Assembly: GCA_050950825.1 (NCBI GenBank)
Contig: JBMNIH010000003.1
Location: forward strand, 333,117 to 397,116
Length of the DNA stretch: 64,000 bases
Direction: 5' to 3'
Origin: Clostridia bacterium
Lineage (GTDB): Bacteria; Bacillota; Clostridia; JAAYHZ01
Of the stretch, positions 35,644 to 61,603 are shown piece by piece. Numbering within the stretch: position 1 is the stretch's first letter; the number at the start of each line of letters is the position of its first letter. The position numbers and the translations under genes are program-made. Below the pieces are notes generated by a model. That model did no database searches. It was not told where the DNA came from and saw only the letters and a list, made by a program, of their open reading frames with translations.

Positions 35644-36687
35644 CTAACTGCCTTTAACTCTCGAGAATATCATTCGACCGGCGTTGGTTTGAAGCACTTT
35701 GGTAACCACCACGTCTACGCTGCTGCCGATAAACTTAATACCGTTTTCAACAACCACCATGGTTCCGTCTTCCAAAAAGCCGACGCCTTGTTTTTCTTCC
35801 TTGCCGGACTTGATGACCTGGATGCTCATTTCGTCTCCCGGCAAAGCGATGGGTTTTAGAGCGTTGCACAATTCGTTTATGTTCAAAACCTGAACACCTT
35901 TAAACGATGCGATTTTATTCAAGTTGTAATCAAGGGTCAAAACTTGGGCATTGATCTCGGAAGCGTACCTTAAAAGGGCGCTGTCCACTTCCTCGTCCTT
36001 GTCCATATAGACCGTAGGTGTGTCCAGATAAATATTGCTGTCTTCCTGCATCGAGTTTAAAATATCCAATCCTCTTCTTCCTTTGCTTCGCGTCAAATCG
36101 TCTTTCGAATCCGCTATATGCCTTAACTCGTTCAATACAAAGGAGGGAACCACCAGTCTTCCTTCGATAAAGCCGCATTTGACCAAATCGCCGATGCGGC
36201 CGTCGATAATGACGCTGGTATCGATGACCTTGGGTCTGATTTCCGACTGGTTTCTTTTTTTGAAGGATTCAATAAAGTTTTCGCTCTTTTTGGTAATGGA
36301 AACCGCCATTCCCAGAACACCGAAAAAGATATTGAGCAATACGGCAATCGGCATGCCGACCACCGGGATTCTGTAAATGGGTATGGATATTAAATTGGCA
36401 ATGATTAATCCGGCTATTAATCCGAGTGCCGTAATAGACACTTCGTAAATGGTCATTTTATGCAGAATTTTTTCTGCTTGCGAATACAGATTGTCGATTA
36501 ATTGAACCAGATTGGATCCGAATATGAAAAAAACCATTGCGGTTATGATGCCGGCCAATACATACAGTGCGATTTGAACGGTGCCTAACGCTTCAAAGTC
36601 CACGGATTTGACAAAGAACCTAACTAACGAAACGCCGGTAAAAGCACCGATCAGTGCAAATAAATATTTAATGATTCGGTCGAGCAT
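35644..36687 (-). CDS. PIN/TRAM-domain membrane protein (YacL-like)
   Basis: N-terminal TM helices, PIN-like and TRAM-like C-terminal domains; start at MLDRII (ATG 36687). Confidence 0.7.
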   Translation of the reverse strand: MLDRIIKYLFALIGAFTGVSLVRFFVKSVDFEALGTVQIALYVLAGIITAMVFFIFGSNLVQLIDNLYSQAEKILHKMTIYEVSITALGLIAGLIIANLISIPIYRIPVVGMPIAVLLNIFFGVLGMAVSITKKSENFIESFKKRNQSEIRPKVIDTSVIIDGRIGDLVKCGFIEGRLVVPSFVLNELRHIADSKDDLTRSKGRRGLDILNSMQEDSNIYLDTPTVYMDKDEEVDSALLRYASEINAQVLTLDYNLNKIASFKGVQVLNINELCNALKPIALPGDEMSIQVIKSGKEEKQGVGFLEDGTMVVVENGIKFIGSSVDVVVTKVLQTNAGRMIFSRVKGS

Positions 36688-48178: not shown

Positions 48179-49330
48179 TTATTTCATCAACCACTTTTCG
48201 TCAAAGACGGCAAAATCCAAATCGCTCGTGGCGGGATGCACCGCACGATAATGGCTGATACCTAATAAAATCCGTCCGTCTTCAAGCTGTATCATTCCGT
48301 GATTACTCAATTGGTTGGTACCGGTTTCATTGGCAATCATTTTCGGCTCGCTCCATGTACGTCCGCCGTCCTTCGATACGGTCGCCACAAGAGGATACCG
48401 GGGATGCTGCGTCGTTGAAGAAGCGTTGTTCCGGACCGCCAATAAATTTCCGCTTTGAAGTCTGATCATACGGGTTATGGATTCCGGTGCCGTTAAAGAA
48501 GAAGGCTCCGACCTGCTCCAGGTTTTACCTCCGTCTAAAGATACGGTTTGGTACACATAGCCGCCCTTGGTTCGAAACAAGCCGAGGATCCGATTCGGTT
48601 CGGTTTCGGCCAATTGTATTTCCATGACGCCTCTTAACGTATCCACGGTAATTTCTTCGCTTCTTGTCCAAGTTTGCCCGCCGTCGTCGGATAAAAGGCA
48701 TGCTCCCGTATAATGCTGCTTCGGATTATCCAAATCTCCTATACAATCCGGATCCAAGAACGTAAATGCCGCCACTATTCGACCGTTTTTTAGTTGGATC
48801 AGGCTGTCAATCCCGCCGTAAAACTTGGTGACCGGCAATTCCTTCCCTCCGGATACCCGGTCCCAAGGCAATTCTTCGCCCGCGTCAAAGGTATGACCTT
48901 TGTCTTCCGAACGGCGAATAAACAGGCGCGTGGTGCTTTGAAAATAGTTGCTGCCCTTAACTAAGCGGTGCAGCTTTTTGTCTACTTCGATGTGATGTCT
49001 TGTTCTTGTGTGCAGCATAATGGCCTTATCGGAATCGGAAAGGCGTAGCATATGGATAAAGCCCGGAACGCCGCCTAAATAATCGGCCATAAAAACTTGG
49101 GGGTCGGACCAAGTGACGCCGTAGTCTTCCGATACGGAATAAAGGACGACGCCGTTTCCGGAGCATTCGTCAAAATCATAGGCGTGCCAATACAAAAGTA
49201 CCTTCCCGTCTTCATACGAAAAAAAACTCGGACCTTGGTGATAGTCGCTGCCGATTCCCCCGCGAATAAATTGATAATAGGACAGTTCCCCGGGTTTATA
49301 GGGCATAGGCTTAATATCGGTAATTTTCAT
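48179..49330 (-). CDS. Cytoplasmic BNR/Asp-box repeat beta-propeller protein (sialidase-like fold), paralog
   Basis: Asp-boxes SEDYGVTW, SDDGGQTW, SLDGGKTW, SKDGGRTW; no signal peptide; GAGGAGG RBS. Confidence 0.7.
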   Translation of the reverse strand: MKITDIKPMPYKPGELSYYQFIRGGIGSDYHQGPSFFSYEDGKVLLYWHAYDFDECSGNGVVLYSVSEDYGVTWSDPQVFMADYLGGVPGFIHMLRLSDSDKAIMLHTRTRHHIEVDKKLHRLVKGSNYFQSTTRLFIRRSEDKGHTFDAGEELPWDRVSGGKELPVTKFYGGIDSLIQLKNGRIVAAFTFLDPDCIGDLDNPKQHYTGACLLSDDGGQTWTRSEEITVDTLRGVMEIQLAETEPNRILGLFRTKGGYVYQTVSLDGGKTWSRSEPSSLTAPESITRMIRLQSGNLLAVRNNASSTTQHPRYPLVATVSKDGGRTWSEPKMIANETGTNQLSNHGMIQLEDGRILLGISHYRAVHPATSDLDFAVFDEKWLMK

Positions 49331-49360
49331 GGGATCCTCCTCATAAAAAAATATGTTCTA

Positions 49361-51688
49361 CTACAGCAGCCTCTGAAAACCGGTATGGTGTACCGGTCCT
49401 TTCAACATGTTTTCAATCCGGTCTTCCGTGATACATTGGGATAGGATTTGAAAGACATCATCGACTGCATGCTCGTATAAGCTTAAGACATCTTCCGTGT
49501 GGGCTAGGGTAGTGCTGAATAGCGTCCCGGCTAAAAATCCTCTTTCCAGCATCAATTGGGTAAATAAGGTTTCCATCTCCCTTGTCTTCGGATGACGAAA
49601 AGAAAACTTGGCTAAACAAGGATAACCGCTGTCTAACGACAAAGGCAAACCGTGTTTCTCCCCGTATTTTTGCCATATAGCCATCACTTTTTCCCCGATT
49701 CGATTCACTCTGTTTGCCACATCCAATCGTTCCAACTTATTGATCGTGGCAAGAGCGGCGGCAGGACCGATGCCTTCCGTCCAATAAGTACTGGATATGA
49801 AAGAAAGATTCGCTCCTTCCATTGCTTCCTTCGTACCGATTACGGCCGCTATGGGATGACCGTTTCCAAGAGCTTTCGCAAAAATAGCCATATCCGGATT
49901 GACACCCAGTCCCAAATGAGAACCGCCGAAATTTCTTCGCCATCCGATGGTAATTTCGTCGAAAATCAATAAAATGCCTTTCTTTTTCGTTTCTTGGCGT
50001 ATGTACTCCAAATAACCTTCTTCCGGGTCATGATAGCGGCAAGGCTCCATAATGACGGCTGCAAGATCCTTGCCGTATGCGTCCATTACACGGTCAAAAG
50101 CCTTTTTGTCTCCATGCGTAAAGGTGACCGCCGTTCCTCTTAATTCCGTCGGCACCCCCAACGGGTCAAGTCCTTGCAAAAGATGTCCTTTTAAAGCATC
50201 CTCTTCTCTTAAATTCGCCGCCAAATACCAATCGTGCCATCCGTGGTAACCGGATATGGCGATTCCGGATCGATTCGTTGTTGCCCGGGCAATACGTACC
50301 GCGATGGCGCCGATTTCTCCCCCGCATCTTGCGAAACGAACTTTCTCGGCCCAAGGATGGATGGCGCATAATCGATCGGCCAATTCCACTTCATCGGGAG
50401 AGTTTAGGGTACACATGCTTCCCAATCGGATTCTTCGGATAACCGCATCGGAAACGTCCGGATCGTTATAGCCTAACAAACAGGTGCTGACACCGTTTAT
50501 GGACATGTCGTAATAATGTCGGCCGTCCAAGTCGATGATTTCACAGCCCCGTGCTTCTTTGTAATAGGCGGGCCATAAATCGGGAGCAAACATTTCGGGG
50601 CGTTTGCTTAAAAGCTGCACTCCTCCCGGGATGATTCTTTTTGCATGCTCATAAAATGTTTGTGTTTTGTTCTTTTTTTCATTTGGGGGATCAAGAAGAT
50701 TTATGGCGTTAGCGTAAAAAATGTTTTGAATGTCTTCGGAAGAAAGTCCGAAATAACCGGCGGCTTCTTTCAAGGCTCGCAAAGATTCCAAAGCCACAAT
50801 AGCAGGACTTTTACAGTTCTTCGCGTTTTCATAATCGCAGGTGTCGGGCTGCAGCCAGAAGAATCCGTCCCCTAACGTTACGCTTCGACCGATAATCTGT
50901 GATATGGGAAAATCGCTTCCCCATAAAAGTCGTGTCGGTCCGAATTCCTGCAAGATCGCCATAATCGGAGAAGCTTCGCAAATGCCGGACATATCAAACC
51001 AAACGTTTTGTATTCCTCTTAAAAAAGTAACTCCTTTACGGGTGTTAGGAGAATGAAATCCTCTTCCTGCATGGGCTAATATGAGTTTTACATGGGGATA
51101 ACGGCGGCATATATCTTGAATCATAGAAAGATTTTCATCATCCGCCAAGGCTTTGTCCTTAACGATATGAAGCGTTACAACAAAATTTTTACGATTCGCT
51201 TCTTCCCATACCCACTCCGGTACAAATGAATTTATAGATCCTTGGTCCTTCGGCTCATGATTCCCGTAGAAATAATAGGGTTTAAAGCCGCGAATACAAG
51301 GATGATCAAGATACTTTTCTATATACTCGGGCATTTCTTCGGTCATGGGAACCAACAGCAAGCCTCTGCTGTCCGGATTATCGTTTAACTCTTTGATAAG
51401 AAATTCATTGGCTTCCTCGATATCCGAAACCGGATAAGGCATGAAAAGCCCGCCTTGAAGATTTTTTCCGAATACGGATTTCATGCAGGATTGCCATATG
51501 GCGATACCGGTGTTTTCGGGACACCCGGCTAAAAAAATCGATTCGGGTACGGAATCAATGGAACGGCGGTACACATGGGCATGTACGTCAAAGATTTTTG
51601 CAGGAAAAAAGTCGATTAGATCTTCCAAAATCGCTTGGGGGTGAGGGTTACCGATACTTTCGGGATAAAAGCTGCATAGATTTTTCAT
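49361..51688 (-). CDS. Fusion protein: N-terminal amidohydrolase-2-type metal-dependent hydrolase domain plus C-terminal class III aminotransferase domain
   Basis: N-terminal FDVHAHVY ... LILAHAGRGFH ... WGSDFP resembles the amidohydrolase_2 metal site; the C-terminal ~430 aa resemble PLP class III (GSA-aminomutase-like) enzymes; start at MKNLC (ATG 51688, AGGAGA RBS). Confidence 0.65.
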   Translation of the reverse strand: MKNLCSFYPESIGNPHPQAILEDLIDFFPAKIFDVHAHVYRRSIDSVPESIFLAGCPENTGIAIWQSCMKSVFGKNLQGGLFMPYPVSDIEEANEFLIKELNDNPDSRGLLLVPMTEEMPEYIEKYLDHPCIRGFKPYYFYGNHEPKDQGSINSFVPEWVWEEANRKNFVVTLHIVKDKALADDENLSMIQDICRRYPHVKLILAHAGRGFHSPNTRKGVTFLRGIQNVWFDMSGICEASPIMAILQEFGPTRLLWGSDFPISQIIGRSVTLGDGFFWLQPDTCDYENAKNCKSPAIVALESLRALKEAAGYFGLSSEDIQNIFYANAINLLDPPNEKKNKTQTFYEHAKRIIPGGVQLLSKRPEMFAPDLWPAYYKEARGCEIIDLDGRHYYDMSINGVSTCLLGYNDPDVSDAVIRRIRLGSMCTLNSPDEVELADRLCAIHPWAEKVRFARCGGEIGAIAVRIARATTNRSGIAISGYHGWHDWYLAANLREEDALKGHLLQGLDPLGVPTELRGTAVTFTHGDKKAFDRVMDAYGKDLAAVIMEPCRYHDPEEGYLEYIRQETKKKGILLIFDEITIGWRRNFGGSHLGLGVNPDMAIFAKALGNGHPIAAVIGTKEAMEGANLSFISSTYWTEGIGPAAALATINKLERLDVANRVNRIGEKVMAIWQKYGEKHGLPLSLDSGYPCLAKFSFRHPKTREMETLFTQLMLERGFLAGTLFSTTLAHTEDVLSLYEHAVDDVFQILSQCITEDRIENMLKGPVHHTGFQRLL

Positions 51689-51822: not shown

Positions 51823-53661
51823 CTAATTTGCGTCTCTGTATTCTTTAAACGTTTTTATATCGCTGCCGTTCCAAATCTCAACCCATTCCTCCAATCCTGC
51901 AGCATAAAGCCGGTCGATATATTGCTCCCATTCGGTGTTGATATTGGCAATTTGTCCGCTCCATACCCTGGATGAGAATTCGTTATGAACGGTTGATATT
52001 TGATCAATGGTTTCTTCTCGCAGTTCTTTGAATTCTTCATATCGATCCGCAGGCATGGTAAAGGCGTTATAGAACTTCTCCGGTCGCAGCCACAGCTTCT
52101 CGTTGTAATACCCTCCGTGTTTTTCCCAGTAGTCGATGAATTGAACACAATGAGCATCGAAGTTGTAAACGACCTTGATATCGGTTATAAAATTGTTGTT
52201 GCCGAATTGGCCGAAGGTTTTCGTGCCCTTACCTGCATATTTTGCAGGTATCTTATCGGCTTCCGTAAAAATAACCGGGCTTTTAAAGGGCTCGCTGTAC
52301 CATTTGTAGTGAACGCCTTCGATTCCCCATTTATACCGCAGCCAATCTTCACCAAAGTACGCATACTCCAGTAATTGGAACAAACGAATCATTTTTTCAT
52401 CCGAGATATTGCCTACTGTATAACACCTCTCATCCCAATTAAAGGGAGTGTAAGGTAAGTATTTGCCGCTGCCCGGACAGGGGGTAATAACAAAGGTCGC
52501 ATCCGGATCGGTATTGTCAAGAATATTTGCCGGCGGCCATTGGTCCCCGTCTCCGTATCCCAAACCTAAGACTCTAGGAGCGCCTAATGTGTTCATAAAA
52601 CCGGTTTTTGCCGTATTCCATATACCTCGAAGCTCCAGCCAATAATCCATTTCGCCCGGCACAAACCGCATATATCCTTTGTCAATCATCTCGGTTAAAA
52701 AGACCAAGCTGTCACGATACGGAGCGTATGCTATGTAGGGAACATAATCTCCGGTAATTGGATCCTTGTAAAAATGGTTCATGTCTTTTGTAAAACCGAA
52801 CATAACGTAAGAAAGATAGCAGTCATACCACGAGTTGGCAAAACCGGATCCGAACGTATCGTCTACCCCGTTTCCGTCGGGATCGTCCTCCGTAAAGCCT
52901 CTTAAAATTTCTCGTACGTCATCTTCCGTAAACACGGTGGTAGAGTAATATACTCTTTCATTCCATGCCTCGGGTTTAATAACGCTGATCATAGGCTCCA
53001 GGTTCTCGAGTGTGTAGCCGAGAGTTTCCAGCCAATCCAAACGCCACATCGGTACGAAACCGTCTACATACGCCGAGCTTGTATTCATACTTATGCCGTA
53101 ATACTCGTCTTCCGTTCCTTCTACCAAGTTAAACTTAAAACCTAAAGGCTCGTCCACAAGCATTTTGTAATAACTTGGTAAATACTGTCGAATCATGTCC
53201 AAAGGTATGGTTCGTCCAAGTCCGTTTTCATACAAGTATTTTCCCGAGGTATAGTAGAACCCCCAGTCCGGAACGTCTCCTGCGGCCAGCATCATCTGTA
53301 CTTGCTCCATGTTGCTCGAATCAATCAGGATGTTCCACATTTTCAAGTCCACATTGAACTTTTCTTCGAGCTCCAACTCATCCCATCGGCCTTCCTCATA
53401 CAGATGGGATGAATAGGTACCTACCAGCCAGTTAATTACCATTTTTTCTGCAAAAGGATTGGCATCCGCCGTCGTTGTTTCCGCTTTTGTCGTTGTTGTC
53501 TGCGCCTTTGTTGTTGTCTGCTTTGCGGAAGCGGTTGTTACGACCGTATCTTCCGGCGATGTTTCAACAACCTCGGAGGTTCCGGAGCATGCCGCCATAC
53601 TGAAAATGATGGCAAGCAACAGTAAGAACGATAAAGACTTCTTAACCGAATTCATCTTCAT
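51823..53661 (-). CDS. Large extracellular solute-binding lipoprotein (paralog of 6673..8520)
   Basis: Lipobox IIFSMAAC, Thr-rich linker, shared blocks with the other binding protein (EEGRWDELELEEKFNVDL vs RDGRWDELELEEMFNVDL). Confidence 0.75.
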   Translation of the reverse strand: MKMNSVKKSLSFLLLLAIIFSMAACSGTSEVVETSPEDTVVTTASAKQTTTKAQTTTTKAETTTADANPFAEKMVINWLVGTYSSHLYEEGRWDELELEEKFNVDLKMWNILIDSSNMEQVQMMLAAGDVPDWGFYYTSGKYLYENGLGRTIPLDMIRQYLPSYYKMLVDEPLGFKFNLVEGTEDEYYGISMNTSSAYVDGFVPMWRLDWLETLGYTLENLEPMISVIKPEAWNERVYYSTTVFTEDDVREILRGFTEDDPDGNGVDDTFGSGFANSWYDCYLSYVMFGFTKDMNHFYKDPITGDYVPYIAYAPYRDSLVFLTEMIDKGYMRFVPGEMDYWLELRGIWNTAKTGFMNTLGAPRVLGLGYGDGDQWPPANILDNTDPDATFVITPCPGSGKYLPYTPFNWDERCYTVGNISDEKMIRLFQLLEYAYFGEDWLRYKWGIEGVHYKWYSEPFKSPVIFTEADKIPAKYAGKGTKTFGQFGNNNFITDIKVVYNFDAHCVQFIDYWEKHGGYYNEKLWLRPEKFYNAFTMPADRYEEFKELREETIDQISTVHNEFSSRVWSGQIANINTEWEQYIDRLYAAGLEEWVEIWNGSDIKTFKEYRDAN

Positions 53662-53876
53662 TTCCCCCTTTTTAAACAAACAACCTATTTTGAATATTTT
53701 GCTTTTCTTATACTGTAATTGATTAAAGCTCATTATGAAATGGTAGAATAAGACAGTTTATTCAGATTCATGTCCTATTTTAACTAAATTATTAATGTTA
53801 TATATTTTTACTATTTGCTATTTATGATAAAATAATATTGCCTGTTAGCGAAGAAAGAAGGGACGGATTCCAAATC

Positions 53877-54146
53877 ATGATTATCAATGGAAATCCAATC
53901 ATTTCGGATTCTATCTTAAAATTTTCGGATAGCGAAATTCATGTGGATATCGAGGGAATTCGTTTTTATATACTTTTAGACAGAAATTTTTTCAGCAGAA
54001 AACACATTTTATCCTTCCTTCGGCACAAGCACGGAGCTATTGAAATCTTCTTTGTTCGCGACGGTCAAGGGGAAATGAGCATCGGTAATAAAACATATGA
54101 GCTGTCGAAAAATAGAATCTATATCGTCAATAAGTGTTTACGCTGA
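53877..54146 (+). pseudogene. AraC-family regulator, N-terminal fragment truncated by an insertion element
   Basis: Frame ends 13 nt inside the insertion; joins in frame to 57296..57944 if the element and one duplication copy are removed. Confidence 0.7.
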
Positions 54147-54354
54147 GTTAAAATGTCCAAAAACTGATGGAATTGCCTGTCCAGATATTGCTGGTATATA
54201 ATGGCCATATACATTCTATAGAAAGAAAAAAGCGTCCTTGTTTCAATGTGATACTGTTACAGCAGTAGCACCAAGGACGTCCCCAAACTATGATCATTAT
54301 ATCAAAATATGAACTAGAAGAAAAGGCAGAAGAACAAGTTTTTATGTAAGAAGT

Positions 54355-54819
54355 TTGGAGCAGTTTCTATGTCCCTGCTGCAGGAGTAACCGTATGAAGG
54401 TTGTAGGGAGCAGGCCCAGGAAGTACCTGCAGGAGGATGCCTCGCAAGTGATATTGATAATACGCAGGCTGCGCTGCCTGGAATGTAACAAGATACATCA
54501 CGAATTGCCCGATATACTGGTTCCATACAAACGGTACAAAAGCGAATGCATAGAGACAGTTGTAGCAGAAGATAACAACACTCCGCTAGCAATAGCATGT
54601 GATGAATCTACGCTATACCGGTGGAAAAAGTGGTTTAACTCTTTAAGCAGGTATTTTGCAGGTTGCTTGCAGTCCATAGCAATACAGCTGGGAAGAGAAA
54701 CTGAAGAAGCTTCAGGACCAATATCCGTCCTCCATAGGATATGGTTTTATGTTATCGCCACTGCTGGCCGAGGGCCTGGATCCTGCAAAAGCGAAAGAGA
54801 TCAAAGCCCGTATATGTGA
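54355..54819 (+). CDS. Element-encoded zinc-ribbon protein of unknown function
   Basis: CPCC ... CLEC Cys4 motif at the N-terminus; overlaps the transposase start in another frame. Confidence 0.4.
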   Translation: MEQFLCPCCRSNRMKVVGSRPRKYLQEDASQVILIIRRLRCLECNKIHHELPDILVPYKRYKSECIETVVAEDNNTPLAIACDESTLYRWKKWFNSLSRYFAGCLQSIAIQLGRETEEASGPISVLHRIWFYVIATAGRGPGSCKSERDQSPYM

Positions 54820-56056
54820 ACAAACCGGTATATCAGAGCGTACTCTCCGAAGATATGTGGCACAATACCGGGAAGCCGGATTCGACGGTTTAAAGCCTAA
54901 AGGAAAGAGCCAAAGAAAAACAGAGGATGCCATACCATCCCATGTATTGGAGCAGGCTATTCTTCTGCGCAGGCAGGTTCCAAGCCGTAGCGTATCACAG
55001 TTGATAAACATCCTGGAGTGGGAAGGAATTGTAGAGCCGGGCCGGATAAAGCGCAGCACACTGCAGGAGCAATTGGCAAACCGGGGGTACAGTGCAAGAC
55101 AGATGAAAATGTACACATCAACGGGAGTAGCAGCGCGCAGGTTCCAACATCGGTATCGCAATAAGCTCTGGCATTCGGACATCAAGTATGGCCCTTATCT
55201 TCCTATCGGCAGGGATGGAGAAAAAAAGCAGGTGTTTTTGGTTCTCTTCGTGGATGATGCTACCAGATACGTTCTTCATGGAGAATTTTATCCCACCCTG
55301 GATAAAGTCATCGTAGAGGATTGCTTCCGGAAGTCCATTCTTAAGCATGGTGTGCCCGAAGCCGTATTTTTTGATAACGGCAGCCAATACAGGAACAAGT
55401 GGATGACACGGGCATGTGCAAAAATGGGCATTCGTCTGCTCTATGCCCGCCCCTACTCGCCGGAAGCAACCGGCAAAGTTGAGAGGCTGAACCGGGTAGT
55501 GGATTCCTTTCTTACAGAGGCCGCTTTGGAGAAACCACAGACCCTGGAAAGGTTGAACGAGCTGTTCCAGGTATGGCTTACCGAATGCTATCAGAACAGG
55601 CCCCATTCCGCCCTGGTGAATCACATGAGTCCGGAGGTTGCATACCGAAGTGATACGAAACCCCAAAGGTTTATTGACCCGGACGTCCTGGCTCAGGCGT
55701 TTTTGCATTTTGAGGAACGCAAGGTGGATAAAGCAGGCTGTATCAGCTTCAACGGCCAAAAGTATGAGGTTGGCCTTCCCTTTATTGGCTGCACCGTAGA
55801 TGTGATCTATGATCCGGCATACACCGACGAGCTTACCATTGAGTATGAAGGCCATAGCCCATGGAAGGCTAAGAAGCTGGTAATAGGTGAACGATCCGGT
55901 CGACGGCCTGATTTACCGGAATATCTTACCACCGAAAAAGCGGAGGCATCCCGCTTGCTAAGAGCAGCCAAAAAGAAGAACGAGCAGCGCATAGAACAGT
56001 ACATGCCTGCCGTCTCTTACAGAAACGTGGCCAAGGGTGGTGAGCAGAATGTTTGA
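54749..56056 (+). CDS. DDE (rve/integrase-core) transposase with N-terminal HTH (IstA/TniA-like)
   Basis: HTH (ISERTLRRYVAQYREAG); catalytic-triad candidates WHSD, FDNGSQY, KVERLN. Confidence 0.75.
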   Translation: MLSPLLAEGLDPAKAKEIKARICEQTGISERTLRRYVAQYREAGFDGLKPKGKSQRKTEDAIPSHVLEQAILLRRQVPSRSVSQLINILEWEGIVEPGRIKRSTLQEQLANRGYSARQMKMYTSTGVAARRFQHRYRNKLWHSDIKYGPYLPIGRDGEKKQVFLVLFVDDATRYVLHGEFYPTLDKVIVEDCFRKSILKHGVPEAVFFDNGSQYRNKWMTRACAKMGIRLLYARPYSPEATGKVERLNRVVDSFLTEAALEKPQTLERLNELFQVWLTECYQNRPHSALVNHMSPEVAYRSDTKPQRFIDPDVLAQAFLHFEERKVDKAGCISFNGQKYEVGLPFIGCTVDVIYDPAYTDELTIEYEGHSPWKAKKLVIGERSGRRPDLPEYLTTEKAEASRLLRAAKKKNEQRIEQYMPAVSYRNVAKGGEQNV

Positions 56057-56849
56057 AGCCTTTTATGGGTTTAAACGCACACCCTTCACACGTGATATTC
56101 CTACTGACCAGCTTTATCAGCCCATCATACCGGAAGAGACATTAGGGCGCCTGCAATATGCTGCAGATCGTCAGTTGTTCGCTGTTGTTACCGGGGACTG
56201 CGGTACCGGCAAAACCACAGCTATCCGCCGTTTCCGGGATATTCTGGACTCTTCACGATTTCATGTTATGTACCTTGCCGATTCCAAACTGACGCCCAGG
56301 CATTTCTACAAGGGTTTACTGGAGCAGCTGGGGTGTGAGGCAAAATTCTACCGTGGAGATGCCAAACGCCAGCTGCACCGGGAAATTGAGCTTATGAAGG
56401 GAATCCATAAACTGCAGCCTGTTGTCATAGTTGATGAAGCTCATCTTTTAGACCGAGAGATGCTGGAAGAGGTTCGTTTCCTGCTGAATTTCAAGATGGA
56501 CTCAGAAAGCCCAATGGCTTTAATTCTGGTGGGACAGTCAGAGTTGTGGGATAAATTCCAGCTCCAGGCATATGCCGCCATCAAGCAACGTATTGATATT
56601 CAGTGCAAACTGAATCATTATGATCGGGCTCAGGTGGGTGAATACGTACATAGACATTTAGAGTATGCAGCTTGCGACAGGGAAATTTTCTCTGAAGCGG
56701 CGTTGGATGAGATATTTAAGTATTCCAGCGGCTCTGCCAGGCTCATAAACAAGCTTTGCACCCATTGCCTGCTGTTCGGTGCTCAAAATGGCCGCAAAAT
56801 CATTGATGACCATATGGTAAAGCTCGTGATACAGGGGGAATTGGCGTGA
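56037..56849 (+). CDS. AAA+ transposition helper ATPase (IstB/TniB/ExeA-like)
   Basis: Walker A GDCGTGKTT, Walker B VIVDEAHLL, C-terminal GSARLINKLC block; overlaps the transposase end by 20 nt. Confidence 0.7.
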   Translation: MVSRMFEAFYGFKRTPFTRDIPTDQLYQPIIPEETLGRLQYAADRQLFAVVTGDCGTGKTTAIRRFRDILDSSRFHVMYLADSKLTPRHFYKGLLEQLGCEAKFYRGDAKRQLHREIELMKGIHKLQPVVIVDEAHLLDREMLEEVRFLLNFKMDSESPMALILVGQSELWDKFQLQAYAAIKQRIDIQCKLNHYDRAQVGEYVHRHLEYAACDREIFSEAALDEIFKYSSGSARLINKLCTHCLLFGAQNGRKIIDDHMVKLVIQGELA

Positions 56850-57172
56850 TACAATTCCACTGTTCTTATCAATGGGATGATGGTAGTAAAGACATATGGC
56901 ATGGTACTGTTAGCCAGGTTATTAATTTCGGCAGCCACTATGAGATTTTCATTTTAAGCCGGAGCAGCTTGCGGGTACTGGTTGGTCAATCAACCTCAGG
57001 GTTGTTTGCCTGTCTTCCTGATTGTAGCGCAGGGTGCCATTTGAGTACCCTTAATGATACTTTCTACAACAGTGAGAAGTTGATTTATGCTTTAGGAAAT
57101 GTTGTAGACGGTATGACAATAGCTTATGCTTTCAAAGCATTGGAACCATTTTTAAACTTCAATAACGACTAA
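56846..57172 (+). CDS. Element-encoded small hypothetical protein
   Basis: 108-aa ORF overlapping the ATPase stop; followed by perfect 10-bp hairpin AGCGGATAAC-CTTTTA-GTTATCCGCT (57179-57204). Confidence 0.35.
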   Translation: MIQFHCSYQWDDGSKDIWHGTVSQVINFGSHYEIFILSRSSLRVLVGQSTSGLFACLPDCSAGCHLSTLNDTFYNSEKLIYALGNVVDGMTIAYAFKALEPFLNFNND

Positions 57173-57278
57173 ATACATAGCGGATAACCTTTTAGTTATC
57201 CGCTCATGCCTTCGCTTTATTGGCAGTTATACCGTCAACTTTTGGTCAATTAACAACATCTATTTCGGGACAATTTGA

Positions 57279-57944
57279 GCTAGCATTAACAATAAAGGAT
57301 CGTATCATTGCCAATCAATCCATAATACGATCGAAGGATACTCCTTTCAGTTTCGTTATGAAGTACAAAAGCCTGCGGAATCCGTCTTCGCTCACAGCGA
57401 GCGCAATCTTTTTCTTGAAAGATTAAACCGACTCCGGGACTGCGTCCTTGAGGATGAATACGACTGCTGCGATACCATCGAAAAAATTCATCAAGAGATG
57501 AGAGAAATGAAATTCGGGTTTTATAACAAGATCCAGACGTATTTTGCACAAATGATCATTCATATATTGCGGATGTATCAACCGAAAAATCCGGAGAAAA
57601 TCGAGCTTGAGAAAAAGAGCCCGGAGCAGTCACGGACGGAAATCATCGACAACTTCTTCTATGACAATTTTGATAAGCGATGCGGTATAGATGATCCGGC
57701 ATCCCTAGTAGGCGTGAGCAGCAGACAATTAAACCGAATCCTTAAAGAAGAATACGGTTATAGCTTTAAGCAAATCATCATGGAAATGCGAGTGGAAGTG
57801 GCAAAAGATTATCTAATCCAAACGGACGTCACCGTATCCGACATCTCCTACATCGTCGGATATACCGAACCAAGCAACTTTTGCGCCGTATTCAGAAAAG
57901 CGACAGGCAAATCTCCCGGCGCCTATAGGAAACACCGTAGATAA
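57279..57944 (+). pseudogene. AraC-family regulator, C-terminal fragment (end of sensor domain plus HTH)
   Basis: Frame open from 57279; AraC-type HTH (SDISYIVGYTEPSNFCAVFRKATGKSPGAYR). Confidence 0.7.
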
Positions 57945-58014: not shown

Positions 58015-58089
<75 letters not shown>

Positions 58090-58090
58090 G

Positions 58091-58165
58091 TGGAGCGGGT
58101 TACGAGATTCGAACTCGCGACTTTCACCTTGGCAAGGTGACACTCTACCGCTGAGTTAAACCCGC
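58091..58165 (-). tRNA. tRNA-Gly (GCC)
   Basis: Acceptor stem GCGGGUU/AACCCGC, anticodon loop UUGCCAA, T-loop GUUCGAAUC, encoded CCA. Confidence 0.85.
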
Positions 58166-58168
58166 AAG

Positions 58169-58244
<76 letters not shown>

Positions 58245-58247
58245 AAA

Positions 58248-58324
58248 TGGCGACCCGGAAGGGACTCGAACCCTCGACCTCTAGCGTGACAGGCTAGCAT
58301 TCTAACCGACTGAACTACCGGGCC
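58248..58324 (-). tRNA. tRNA-Asp (GUC)
   Basis: Anticodon stem-loop CUAGC-CUGUCAC-GCUAG; encoded CCA. Confidence 0.85.
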
Positions 58325-58328
58325 ATAT

Positions 58329-58404
58329 TGGTGGGCGCTACAGGGATCGAACCTATGACCCCCTGCTTGTAAGGCAGGTGCTCTCCCGGCTGAGCTAAGC
58401 GCCC
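58329..58404 (-). tRNA. tRNA-Val (UAC)
   Basis: Anticodon stem-loop CCUGC-CUUACAA-GCAGG; encoded CCA. Confidence 0.85.
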
Positions 58405-60376: not shown

Positions 60377-61603
60377 TTAAGGTGCCAGCTTCCCTTTCAT
60401 GATTTCCACCGCCGCATGGAACTGGAGATCCTCCTGTCGAGGGATGGAAGAGATGGGGCTGTCTTTATACGTTCCTTGAATTTCCACCTTATGGTCCGGT
60501 GTAATGCCTACGTCCTGAACGACATTTCCTTTGGGCGTATAATAGCCTGCTATGGTCACTCGAAGCCCCGAGCCGTCTTTCGTAGGAATAATCGCTTGAA
60601 CGACACCTTTACCGTAGGTTTGGGTACCTACAATAGTCGCTCTTCCGTTGTCCTGGAATGCGCCGGCCAATACCTCCGAAGCACTGGCACTTCTTTCGTT
60701 CACCAATACCACAAGAGGGATGTCGATATGGGCTGCGTTGGACCTTTCATACTCCCGATTGCCGTCTTTATCTTCGGTGTAAAGAATGATTGCTTCCGGC
60801 AAGAACATATCGGCAATGCTCACCACTTGGTCGTAGCTTCCGCCGGGGTTATCCCGTACATCTATAATCAACCCTTTAATGCCCTTTTTAAGCAGCAAAT
60901 TAAGCTCGTTATAAAAATCCATGGCAACCATGGTATCAAACATGGTAATTCGAATATACCCTATCAGGTTATCAATAATCTCGGATTTTACACTGGGAAT
61001 ATGGACCTTTTTCCTTACCATCTTAAAATCCAAATATTGAAATTCCGAAGGTCTGTAAACGGTAACGACAACCTCCGTACCTTCTTCTCCTTTAATCAGA
61101 TTCACTACAAAATCGGCTTCTTCCTCGGTAACGTCGTCGCCGTTGACCTTAACGATCAAATCGCCTTCTTTGATTCCCGCCGCTTTTGCAGGACCGCCGC
61201 CTACCGCTTCAATAACCTCCAAGATGCCGTCTTTGGTTTCGGAAACGATCAGTCCTACACCTACATAGCTGCTGGAGGAATACTCGCGCAATTGCTTCAT
61301 TTGCTCTTTGGTATAGTAGATGGTATACGGATCCTTTAATCCTGCCGCTAATCCGGCAATGGCTCCTTCGAACATTTCCCTTTCATCGATATCATAGTAA
61401 AAGTTTTCCTTAAGCAAGTTCCAAACCTCGGAAAACTTAGCGACATCCGACTTTGTCAATTCGTCTTTATTAAAATATAAAACATATTCGTTCCGAGGAT
61501 TATACAAGCTTCTCGTATACGAATATGTCAGCGCCGAAGAAATCAGTGCCGTCGCAAGAACGAGCACAAGGACGAGTGCCCATCTGGGTTTATTGTTCAA
61601 CAT
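60377..61603 (-). CDS. S41 C-terminal processing peptidase (CtpA-like) with PDZ domain
   Basis: 408 aa; signal anchor, PDZ, S41 core (ERSASASEVLAGA, TYGKGVVQ). Confidence 0.85.
   Translation of the reverse strand: MLNNKPRWALVLVLVLATALISSALTYSYTRSLYNPRNEYVLYFNKDELTKSDVAKFSEVWNLLKENFYYDIDEREMFEGAIAGLAAGLKDPYTIYYTKEQMKQLREYSSSSYVGVGLIVSETKDGILEVIEAVGGGPAKAAGIKEGDLIVKVNGDDVTEEEADFVVNLIKGEEGTEVVVTVYRPSEFQYLDFKMVRKKVHIPSVKSEIIDNLIGYIRITMFDTMVAMDFYNELNLLLKKGIKGLIIDVRDNPGGSYDQVVSIADMFLPEAIILYTEDKDGNREYERSNAAHIDIPLVVLVNERSASASEVLAGAFQDNGRATIVGTQTYGKGVVQAIIPTKDGSGLRVTIAGYYTPKGNVVQDVGITPDHKVEIQGTYKDSPISSIPRQEDLQFHAAVEIMKGKLAP

Follow-up and report, generated by a model that had tools for sequence, protein, structure and literature searches.

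A four-gene transposon encoding a DDE transposase and an AAA+ ATPase interrupts an AraC-type regulator gene in a Clostridia bacterium

Among the described systems closest to the element discussed here is Tn552 of Staphylococcus aureus, whose terminal inverted repeats are long and whose insertions duplicate 6 bp of the target (PMC3276174). Two further systems are known from gene content: a 'repetitive gene cassette' of DUF6431, DDE and AAA ATPase genes in Clostridium sp. JS66, found in 15 copies, two of which mediated a 63-kb deletion (bioRxiv 10.64898/2026.08.16.744336), and, in the sialic-acid (nan) cluster of Ruminococcus gnavus RJX1126, DDE and DUF6431 genes that adjoin a gene of 456 bp annotated 'AraC family ligand-binding domain' (NZ_NIHU01000030.1; PMC12323340, Table 1). 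For these cassettes the JS66 and R. gnavus papers report neither ends nor duplications, and neither a family name nor a mechanism; in the literature we found only such descriptive mentions and no definition of a family (ISfinder lay outside the scope of the search). Here we describe an element of this kind in a 64,000-nucleotide stretch of the genome of an uncultured Clostridia bacterium (assembly GCA_050950825.1, contig JBMNIH010000003.1, positions 333,117 to 397,116; 'the window' from here on), where it sits within the gene for an AraC-type regulator. We have very little doubt that this is a simple, recent insertion of a DDE transposon into a gene of the AraC/XylS family, and that the inserted copy later suffered a 191-bp deletion in place.

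The string CAATAA at 54128-54133 is repeated at 57290-57295, with 3156 bp (54134-57289) in between, and the joining of 53877-54133 to 57296-57944 yields an open frame of 906 nt, or 301 amino acids (aa), just as the original prediction had it when it proposed that removing the insert and one CAATAA would restore a regulator of about 300 residues. The junction of the rejoined protein reads NRIYIVNK-GSYHCQS (...NRIYIVNK-GSYHCQSIHNTIEGYSF...). Towards its N-terminus, residues 46-92 match the AraC_binding (24.7 bits, cut-off 21.1) and Cupin_2 (27.2 bits, cut-off 27.2) domains, and at its C-terminus residues 221-298 match HTH_18 (80.7 bits, cut-off 33.6) and HTH_AraC (56.9 bits, cut-off 26.6); the interrupted gene has both hallmarks of the AraC/XylS family, a cupin-type N-terminal domain and a double helix-turn-helix C-terminal domain. 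Its parts in the window are as follows.

53877..54146, plus strand: araC 5' fragment, an 89-aa open reading frame (ORF) in which codons 1-86 are native (to 54134) and are followed by element-encoded C-L-R and a stop
54128..54133, no strand: left CAATAA, target DNA, present as a single copy in the empty site
57290..57295, no strand: right CAATAA, of which 57290-57291 are the element's terminal CA, the target resuming from 57292 (ATAAAGG...)
57292..57944, plus strand: araC 3' fragment, residues 87-301

The insertion point lies within the cupin ligand-binding domain, at codon 86/87, and a full-length, ligand-responsive AraC regulator can no longer be made, the cupin sensor half having been parted from the helix-turn-helix half. 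An in-frame TGA at 57276-57278, inside the element, blocks any read-through fusion into the 3' fragment, whose earliest in-frame ATG (57498) opens a 148-aa ORF with the entire HTH_18 DNA-binding domain. JGI gene calls report an 89-aa Cupin_2 fragment in three other contigs (L019, L022 and L027; contigs are cited by such handles where they have to be told apart) and a 145-aa HTH_AraC fragment for the 3' part. In an annotation, araC of the window should count as a pseudogene and the resident transposon copy as probably defective.

The uninterrupted allele that relatives were expected to hold, with the predicted junction and a single CAATAA, was found in L001, L046 and L055. A homologue search returned an intact 301-aa protein (P0001) that is 97% identical to the rejoined AraC with full-length coverage, and the 1062-bp contig that encodes it (L001) aligns to both window flanks, with one CAATAA at the predicted junction. 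Conspecific contigs were located via an exact match to the Hsp33 protein of the window, whose gene lies 0.5 kb downstream; two of them, L046 and L055, carry an uninterrupted AraC of 301 or 314 aa and are fully syntenic with the window (in the order Hsp33, tRNA cluster, AraC, solute-binding protein, Amidohydro_2/Aminotran_3 fusion, BNR_2). Their flanks are 99.3-99.6% identical to those of the window over 4.3-6.8 kb on each side, and the alignments abut across the 6-bp CAATAA. Indeed, the contigs with identical Hsp33 show three alleles of araC, namely empty (L046, L055), occupied by the full-length element (L022/L049) and occupied by the 191-bp-deleted element (the window and L019/L027/L048). 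The element at araC is a presence/absence polymorphism inside one species-level population, and this supports the proposal that the insertion is recent. Proteins of the window are also identical to MGI6561851 to MGI6561871 of an NCBI metagenome-assembled genome, encoded on a contig of 467,850 bp, where a break in the accession numbering between the ABC-F gene and Hsp33 is compatible with the element being there. The clean splitting of an AraC-type regulator by a mobile element is borne out by the in-frame rejoining and the intact conspecific allele alike. As an event this is of course ordinary, since insertion sequences often inactivate regulators; what the locus adds is a well-documented microevolution series, in which the empty site, the full-length insertion and the insertion deleted in place have all been observed in one species-level population.

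Might the arrangement instead be an assembly artefact, in which a repeated element was misthreaded between two unrelated AraC-like fragments? The element is certainly multicopy, and some metagenome contigs (L024/L052, L026/L050) pair the araC right flank with the left flanks of other copies, so path switching or genuine recombination at this repeat does happen. The fragments nevertheless rejoin in frame to a protein that is found intact in conspecific genomes, and the insert is bounded by a target duplication. In addition, the left junction is seen again in L019, L022 and L027-L030 and the right junction in L019, L022, L024 and L026 (by gene order also in L033 and L034). This recurrence of both junctions in several independent JGI and Logan assemblies leads us to treat an artefact as excluded, with a probability close to nil, and the objection of this kind that accompanied the original prediction fails.

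The insertion thus being real, its exact boundaries were defined by comparing the flanks of more than 20 copies of the element. At all 11 different right flanks, 'CA' comes after TTAA (ATAA in L008), and the base preceding TGTTT differs among copies (G, T, C or A); the constant CA on the right and the variable base on the left mean that the element is TGT...ACA and runs from 54135 to 57291.

54135..57291, plus strand: transposon proper, 3157 bp, with termini 5'-TGTTTACGC...GCATTAACA-3', a 191-bp-deleted derivative of a 3348-bp element
54135..54196, plus strand: left terminal inverted repeat, with 17-bp putative transposase-binding repeats at 54154-54170 and 54178-54194 (element positions 20-36 and 44-60)
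57230..57291, minus strand: right terminal inverted repeat, with 17-bp repeats at 57256-57272 and 57232-57248, at offsets of 20-36 and 44-60 from the terminus as at the left

Each end is an inverted repeat of about 60 bp that is imperfect, as had been noted: the two ends, set in register from TGTT, agree at 17 of 25, 26 of 40 and 37 of 60 positions. The 17-bp repeat, with a consensus of about TGTCCnnAAnnnnnTGG, has identical offsets in both ends, and a scan of the window for this motif gave four matches (three in the element ends and one at 36021) where 0.29 were expected; the paired repeats are likely to be the sites, as yet putative, to which the transposase binds.

A reading that takes the CAATAA repeat literally would have the element as GTGTTT...CATTAA (54134-57289), flanked by a duplication of exactly 6 bp. 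It can point to a direct repeat that is perfect and of the family's commonest duplication length, and to the 7 out of 10 distinct left flanks in which TGTTT has a G before it. Against this, T, C or A stands there in other near-identical copies, and the terminal CA is constant across the right flanks; DDE transposases of this class transfer a 3'-CA end, which makes an element without CA mechanistically unlikely. A related subfamily (P0104, 72% identical) is, moreover, cleanly TGTTA...TAACA, with ends TGTTAAAG...GTAACA at which some contigs break exactly. We therefore regard the literal reading as very unlikely and keep to TGT...ACA. With those ends, the window flanks become ...CAATAAG/TGT on the left and ACA/ATAAAGG on the right (the slash marking the terminus), the empty site being ...CAATAAAGG..., and the net gain over the empty site is 3157 + 5 nt. 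Of the 6-bp CAATAA duplication that was originally claimed, the perfect 6-bp string stands, but its right 'CA' is the terminus of the element and the net duplication is 5 nt. The perfect repeat is partly coincidental, which leaves the in-frame rejoining unaffected, and one extra step is needed: either a 6-bp duplication, ATAAAG, has lost an A, or the duplication is of 5 bp and an A in it has changed to G.

Elsewhere in the family duplications are regular. All five resolved insertions of the P0104 subfamily have clean 6-bp duplications (ATATAT, GAATGG, TCGTAT, CCTTAC and AGATGG), and the window's own subfamily has CTGAAG (6 bp) and ATTGAAG and CCATGAG (7 bp each), the 6-bp case being that of L025 and the 7-bp cases those of L017 and L008, for a family record of six 6-bp and two 7-bp cases. 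A separate observation concerns L007, from a metagenome-assembled genome (MAG) of Tepidanaerobacteraceae, which has a regular 6-bp duplication, ACATAT, with two extra bases (AT) before the left terminus. In the window it is the left copy of the duplication that is one base short, so that here, as in L007, the irregularity lies at the left junction, and the two cases may be a sign that the left end is processed or repaired imprecisely.

The element was also described as visibly more GC-rich than its AT-rich flanks. This holds against the araC gene (46.5% versus 40.7%), but only locally, the window as a whole being at 43.8%, both 5-kb flanks at about 44% and some host segments at up to 0.51-0.52. 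The GC content of the element lies inside the host's own range, and we rejected it as a sign of foreign origin; the element stands out from one gene and an intergenic region that are locally AT-rich, and not from the genome.

In its full-length form the element is 3348 bp long and has four co-oriented genes, a layout present in every full-length copy that was recovered. The genes and candidate signals of the window copy, and the place of its deletion, are these.

54355..54819, plus strand: DUF6431 zinc-ribbon gene, TTG start, Pfam PF20020 with E = 2.9e-27, authentic up to about 54752
54749..56056, plus strand: DDE (DD35E) transposase gene tnpA, 435 aa, N-terminally truncated, with rve and HTH_28 domains
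56049..56849, plus strand: AAA+ ATPase gene, 266 aa, its start overlapping the tnpA stop, Walker A GDCGTGKT and Walker B VIVDEAH
56846..57172, plus strand: small fourth gene, 108 aa, with a weak DUF6618 match and a position conserved across the family
54173..54202, plus strand: promoter-like TTGCCT-18-TATAAT overlapping the inner left-end repeat, a candidate operon promoter by consensus match only
57179..57204, no strand: hairpin with an 11-bp stem just past the last gene, called on the minus strand, the plus strand being without a clear T-run
54752..54753, no strand: deletion junction, 191 bp corresponding to positions 619-809 of the full-length element

The hairpin may mark the end of the element transcript. 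Promoter-like sites are no commoner than in shuffled sequence, and terminator-like sites are about twice as common (9 versus 4.5 ± 1.9).

Comparison of the window copy with the full-length copy at the same araC site (L022/L049) gives 0 mismatches in 3157 positions and a single gap of 191 bp. In the full-length copy of L022, DUF6431 is intact at 152 aa and the transposase is called as 461 aa. The deletion removes the last 32 or so codons of DUF6431, which are replaced by out-of-frame residues, and with them a C-terminal motif, GWLARIV..N.N.W..TRSA, that has nine invariant residues across 33 aligned homologues. Lost as well are the GGGGG Shine-Dalgarno sequence between the two genes and codons 1-16 of the transposase, which is 451 aa when complete; the junction fortuitously makes an ATG at 54749 that opens the 435-aa frame. 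Exactly this 435-aa transposase occurs in five contigs, four of them at araC and the fifth internal to the element; as every carrier with a visible flank is at araC, the deletion arose in place after the insertion, and among these five contigs there is no sign of the deleted form having moved. The deletion has probably crippled the resident copy, which would no longer be autonomous. An identical ATPase is encoded at several further insertion sites within this series of samples (L017, L018, L020, L023 and L025), helper copies probably exist, and both ends of the resident copy are intact, so that intact sister copies could still mobilise it.

What kind of element is this? The catalytic residues of the transposase (D144, D209 and E245) are intact, and its homologues are 451 aa long, or called as 461 aa in some cases. 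Among insertion sequence (IS) family models its best match is IS481 (residues 18-295, 185 bits, E = 2e-54), a score that was obtained with the truncated 435-aa form and lies below the curated cut-off for that family (NF033577, 224 bits). It also matches the phrog_310 transposase (E = 9e-47), and its best solved relative by profile is TnsB of ShCAST, a type V-K CRISPR-associated transposon (E = 4e-6), in a match that spans the catalytic core and the region after it. When aligned with Tn552 p480 by hhalign, it gives a probability of 98.2% and E = 3e-14 over 348 columns at 25% identity, and the 150 or so C-terminal residues that extend beyond the IS481 match align with both Tn552 p480 and TnsB. 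A structure model of the transposase is poor in the catalytic core (pTM 0.28), and the alignment, in which all sequences are more than 70% identical, is too shallow; the top 15 Foldseek matches of this low-confidence model are all TnsB, IstA or MuA, and can be taken as supportive only. In the ATPase, both Walker motifs are intact. Its Pfam matches are AAA_22 (88 bits, E = 6e-25) and, marginally, TniB (25.4 bits versus a cut-off of 22.4); it matches the phrog_296 'DNA transposition protein' (E = 8e-30), its sole PDB match is MuB (E = 5e-5), and hhalign pairs it with Tn552 p271 at 79% probability and E = 1.5e-5. Each of the two core proteins has its homologue in the transposase-ATPase pairs of Tn552, Mu and Tn7, a mechanistic class into which the element also fits by its TG...CA ends, its several repeats per end and its duplications of 6-7 bp.

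The resemblance to Tn552 extends to layout, the transposase being followed by the ATPase with overlapping stop and start and the proteins being of similar size (451 and 266 aa here, 480 and 271 aa there). The element differs from Tn552 in having neither a resolvase/res site nor cargo such as bla (no recombinase domain was found in its four ORFs with Pfam, NCBIfam or PHROGs), in its extra DUF6431 and DUF6618 genes, in terminal repeats of about 60 bp rather than about 120 bp, in duplications that may be 7 bp as well as 6 bp, and in a protein identity of only about 20-25%. Like Mu and the Tn7-like/Tn5053 elements, it couples a DDE transposase (with an N-terminal helix-turn-helix, an RNase-H core and a beta-rich C-terminal region) with an AAA+ partner, and it has TG...CA termini with multiple internal putative transposase-binding repeats. 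Its duplications of 6-7 bp, where theirs are of 5 bp, set it apart from these systems, and at 3.35 kb it is far smaller than they are. Neither TniQ nor TnsA domains were found in its proteins by Pfam and IS-family/NCBIfam models, and a structure model of DUF6431 gave no informative structural match and none that was TniQ-like, in line with the absence of TniQ in Pfam. The ORF list and domain scan also revealed no phage structural or lysis genes in the 3.35 kb, so the element is not a Mu-like phage.

It could be objected that this is simply a regular member of the IS481 or IS21 family and not a Tn552/Mu-like module. IS481 is by far the best IS-family match, the DD35E motif is shared, and TGT ends, such as the TGT...ACA seen here, are typical of that family; IS21, for its part, likewise couples a DDE transposase with an AAA+ helper, and its IstA is among the Foldseek matches. 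IS481 elements, however, have a single transposase gene and are about 1-1.3 kb in length, whereas this element has four genes including an ATPase, some 150 extra C-terminal residues in its transposase and three times the usual IS481 length. The IS481 score stays under its cut-off, and PGAP uses the generic 'DDE-type integrase/transposase/recombinase' for homologues. The marks of IS21 are missing too, since the IstA model gives 43.6 bits (cut-off 160) and the ATPase has no match to IstB_IS21 (PF01695), its relatives being MuB, TniB and Tn552 p271. We consider membership of either family unlikely and hold to a relationship with Tn552, Mu and Tn7.

The cassettes of JS66 and R. gnavus have the same three named genes in the same arrangement as the window element, a likeness based on gene names and order. 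In passing, the 456-bp AraC gene of R. gnavus may be another AraC regulator cut by the same kind of cassette. Relatives are plentiful: a search with the transposase gave 2554 significant matches among 8000 candidates scored, and the best 120 of these are all at least 71% identical, many of them on contigs of about 3 kb, as is typical of a collapsed repeat. Copies with a 99%-identical transposase occur in MAGs assigned to Caldicoprobacterales and Tepidanaerobacteraceae, and a plasmid of Alicyclobacillus dauci has a 65%-identical element with the same first three genes (named by PGAP 'DUF6431 domain-containing protein', 'DDE-type integrase/transposase/recombinase' and 'AAA family ATPase') and a small fourth gene annotated as DUF5348. 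There is, in our view, a moderate chance that no description of the family itself exists. The fuller proposition, that the four-gene element represents an undescribed, very abundant and compact family of ATPase-assisted transposons of anaerobic Bacillota, in which DUF6431 and DUF6618 are new accessory factors, and that the events at the araC locus reflect selection on the neighbouring cluster rather than chance, is tentative, and we would give it rather less than an even chance. In any case, the cassette that was known as a 'repetitive gene cassette' now has an anatomy (ends, putative binding repeats, duplication length and gene set), and it can be placed as a pared-down relative of Tn552, Mu and Tn7; its two conserved partners, DUF6431 and DUF6618, are uncharacterised and testable for roles in target choice or regulation.

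Several other copies have histories of their own. A 72%-identical relative, whose left flank is in L041 and right flank in L040, sits in an apparent CRISPR spacer, with the repeat GTTACTAGGTTTCCTATAAGGAATTGAAAC on both sides and a shared duplication, TCGTAT. An IS4-like element (DDE_Tnp_1, 515 aa) lies inside the ATPase gene of another copy (L003:3493-5195), and a further copy has a 1.87-kb insert about 119 bp from its left end (L007:2519-4385).

By homology with Mu, Tn7, IS21 and Tn552, a mechanism can be sketched. The transposase would bind the two 17-bp repeats in each terminal inverted repeat of about 60 bp and expose the 3'-CA ends; the ATPase, bound to ATP and to target DNA, would then help it to join those ends to the target across a staggered cut of 6-7 bp, and gap repair would yield the flanking duplication. 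A few points weigh against our account of the locus as a whole. No perfect duplication (4-7 bp checked) is found at the canonical ends, and the transposase structure model is poor (pLDDT 59). Transposition activity, like the roles of the ATPase, DUF6431 and DUF6618, is a prediction from homology. The ATG at 54749, with AGGA 9 nt upstream, could still permit a 435-aa transposase to be made, and to call the copy 'crippled' is a judgement. Finally, whether AraC controls the divergent cluster, and in which direction, has to be presumed.

That cluster begins with a gene that is divergent from araC:

51823..53733, minus strand: lipoprotein-type solute-binding protein gene, divergent from araC, first gene of the neighbouring cluster

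It continues with an Amidohydro_2+Aminotran_3 fusion, two BNR_2 proteins, a URO-D-like protein and a DegT aminotransferase, and on the gene arrangement it is the presumed target of AraC. Loss of regulation of the cluster is a plausible consequence of the insertion, and if AraC is an activator then loss of induction is the most likely outcome. The consequences might also be of a different sort, with the 148-aa C-terminal ORF acting as a ligand-independent regulator, or with the insertion belonging to a set of selected changes by which the cluster's expression is altered. Some AraC/XylS proteins have C-terminal domains that are constitutively active in isolation, and the DNA-binding domain here is whole and lies downstream of the in-frame ATG at 57498; a consensus scan that did no better than on shuffled sequence, however, gave no convincing outward promoter or ribosome-binding site for this ORF, and the hairpin stands after the last gene of the element. 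In favour of selection are an IS1182-like IS in the intergenic region between araC and the solute-binding protein gene in L047, L051 and L053 and duplication-type junctions that span the locus (L028/L054), which together may represent parallel hits on one regulatory region, but parallel IS hits are equally compatible with neutrality of the locus. These scenarios seem to us improbable, if not strikingly so, and a loss of regulation of the cluster would be the more plausible outcome.

The intergenic IS is worth describing in its own right. In the three contigs that carry it AraC is intact, and an IS of 1966 bp lies at about window position 53792-53823, in what is the promoter region; it encodes a 508-aa DDE_Tnp_1_6/DUF772 transposase, has terminal repeats GATTCTACTGCAAAAA and is a second, independent IS hit there. 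In L028/L054 (JGI 3300065809), window position 61366 is joined to 50037 in the same orientation with 12 bp of microhomology, which truncates genes for an S41 peptidase and an amidohydrolase. The same 281-aa truncated peptidase occurs in a Logan contig, and a junction of this type points to a tandem duplication of 11.3 kb, or to a circle, that takes in araC::Tn.

Other contigs depart from the window in ways that involve the element itself. In L024/L052 and L026/L050 the right flank is araC-3'/Hsp33, and the left flanks, which come from other copies of the element, adjoin Flavodoxin_5/PRiA4 genes or a TniQ/TnsD gene, a pattern that reflects either inter-copy recombination or assembly path-switching at the repeat. 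In L029 (Logan SRR31128984) and L030 (JGI 3300060992), homology to the window ends within the ATPase gene, at 56114 and 56181, respectively, beyond which lie unrelated genes (Peptidase_M28 and Glug/Peptidase_S8); L029 rejoins the window at 48412-51082, and both contigs represent either a rearrangement or a chimera. An Rfam scan of 53.0-58.6 kb returned only a compact group of five tRNA genes (Cys-GCA, Gly-GCC, Phe-GAA, Asp-GTC and Val-TAC), which lie on the other side of the locus at 58015-58404 on the minus strand, 70 bp past the araC stop and between araC and hsp33.

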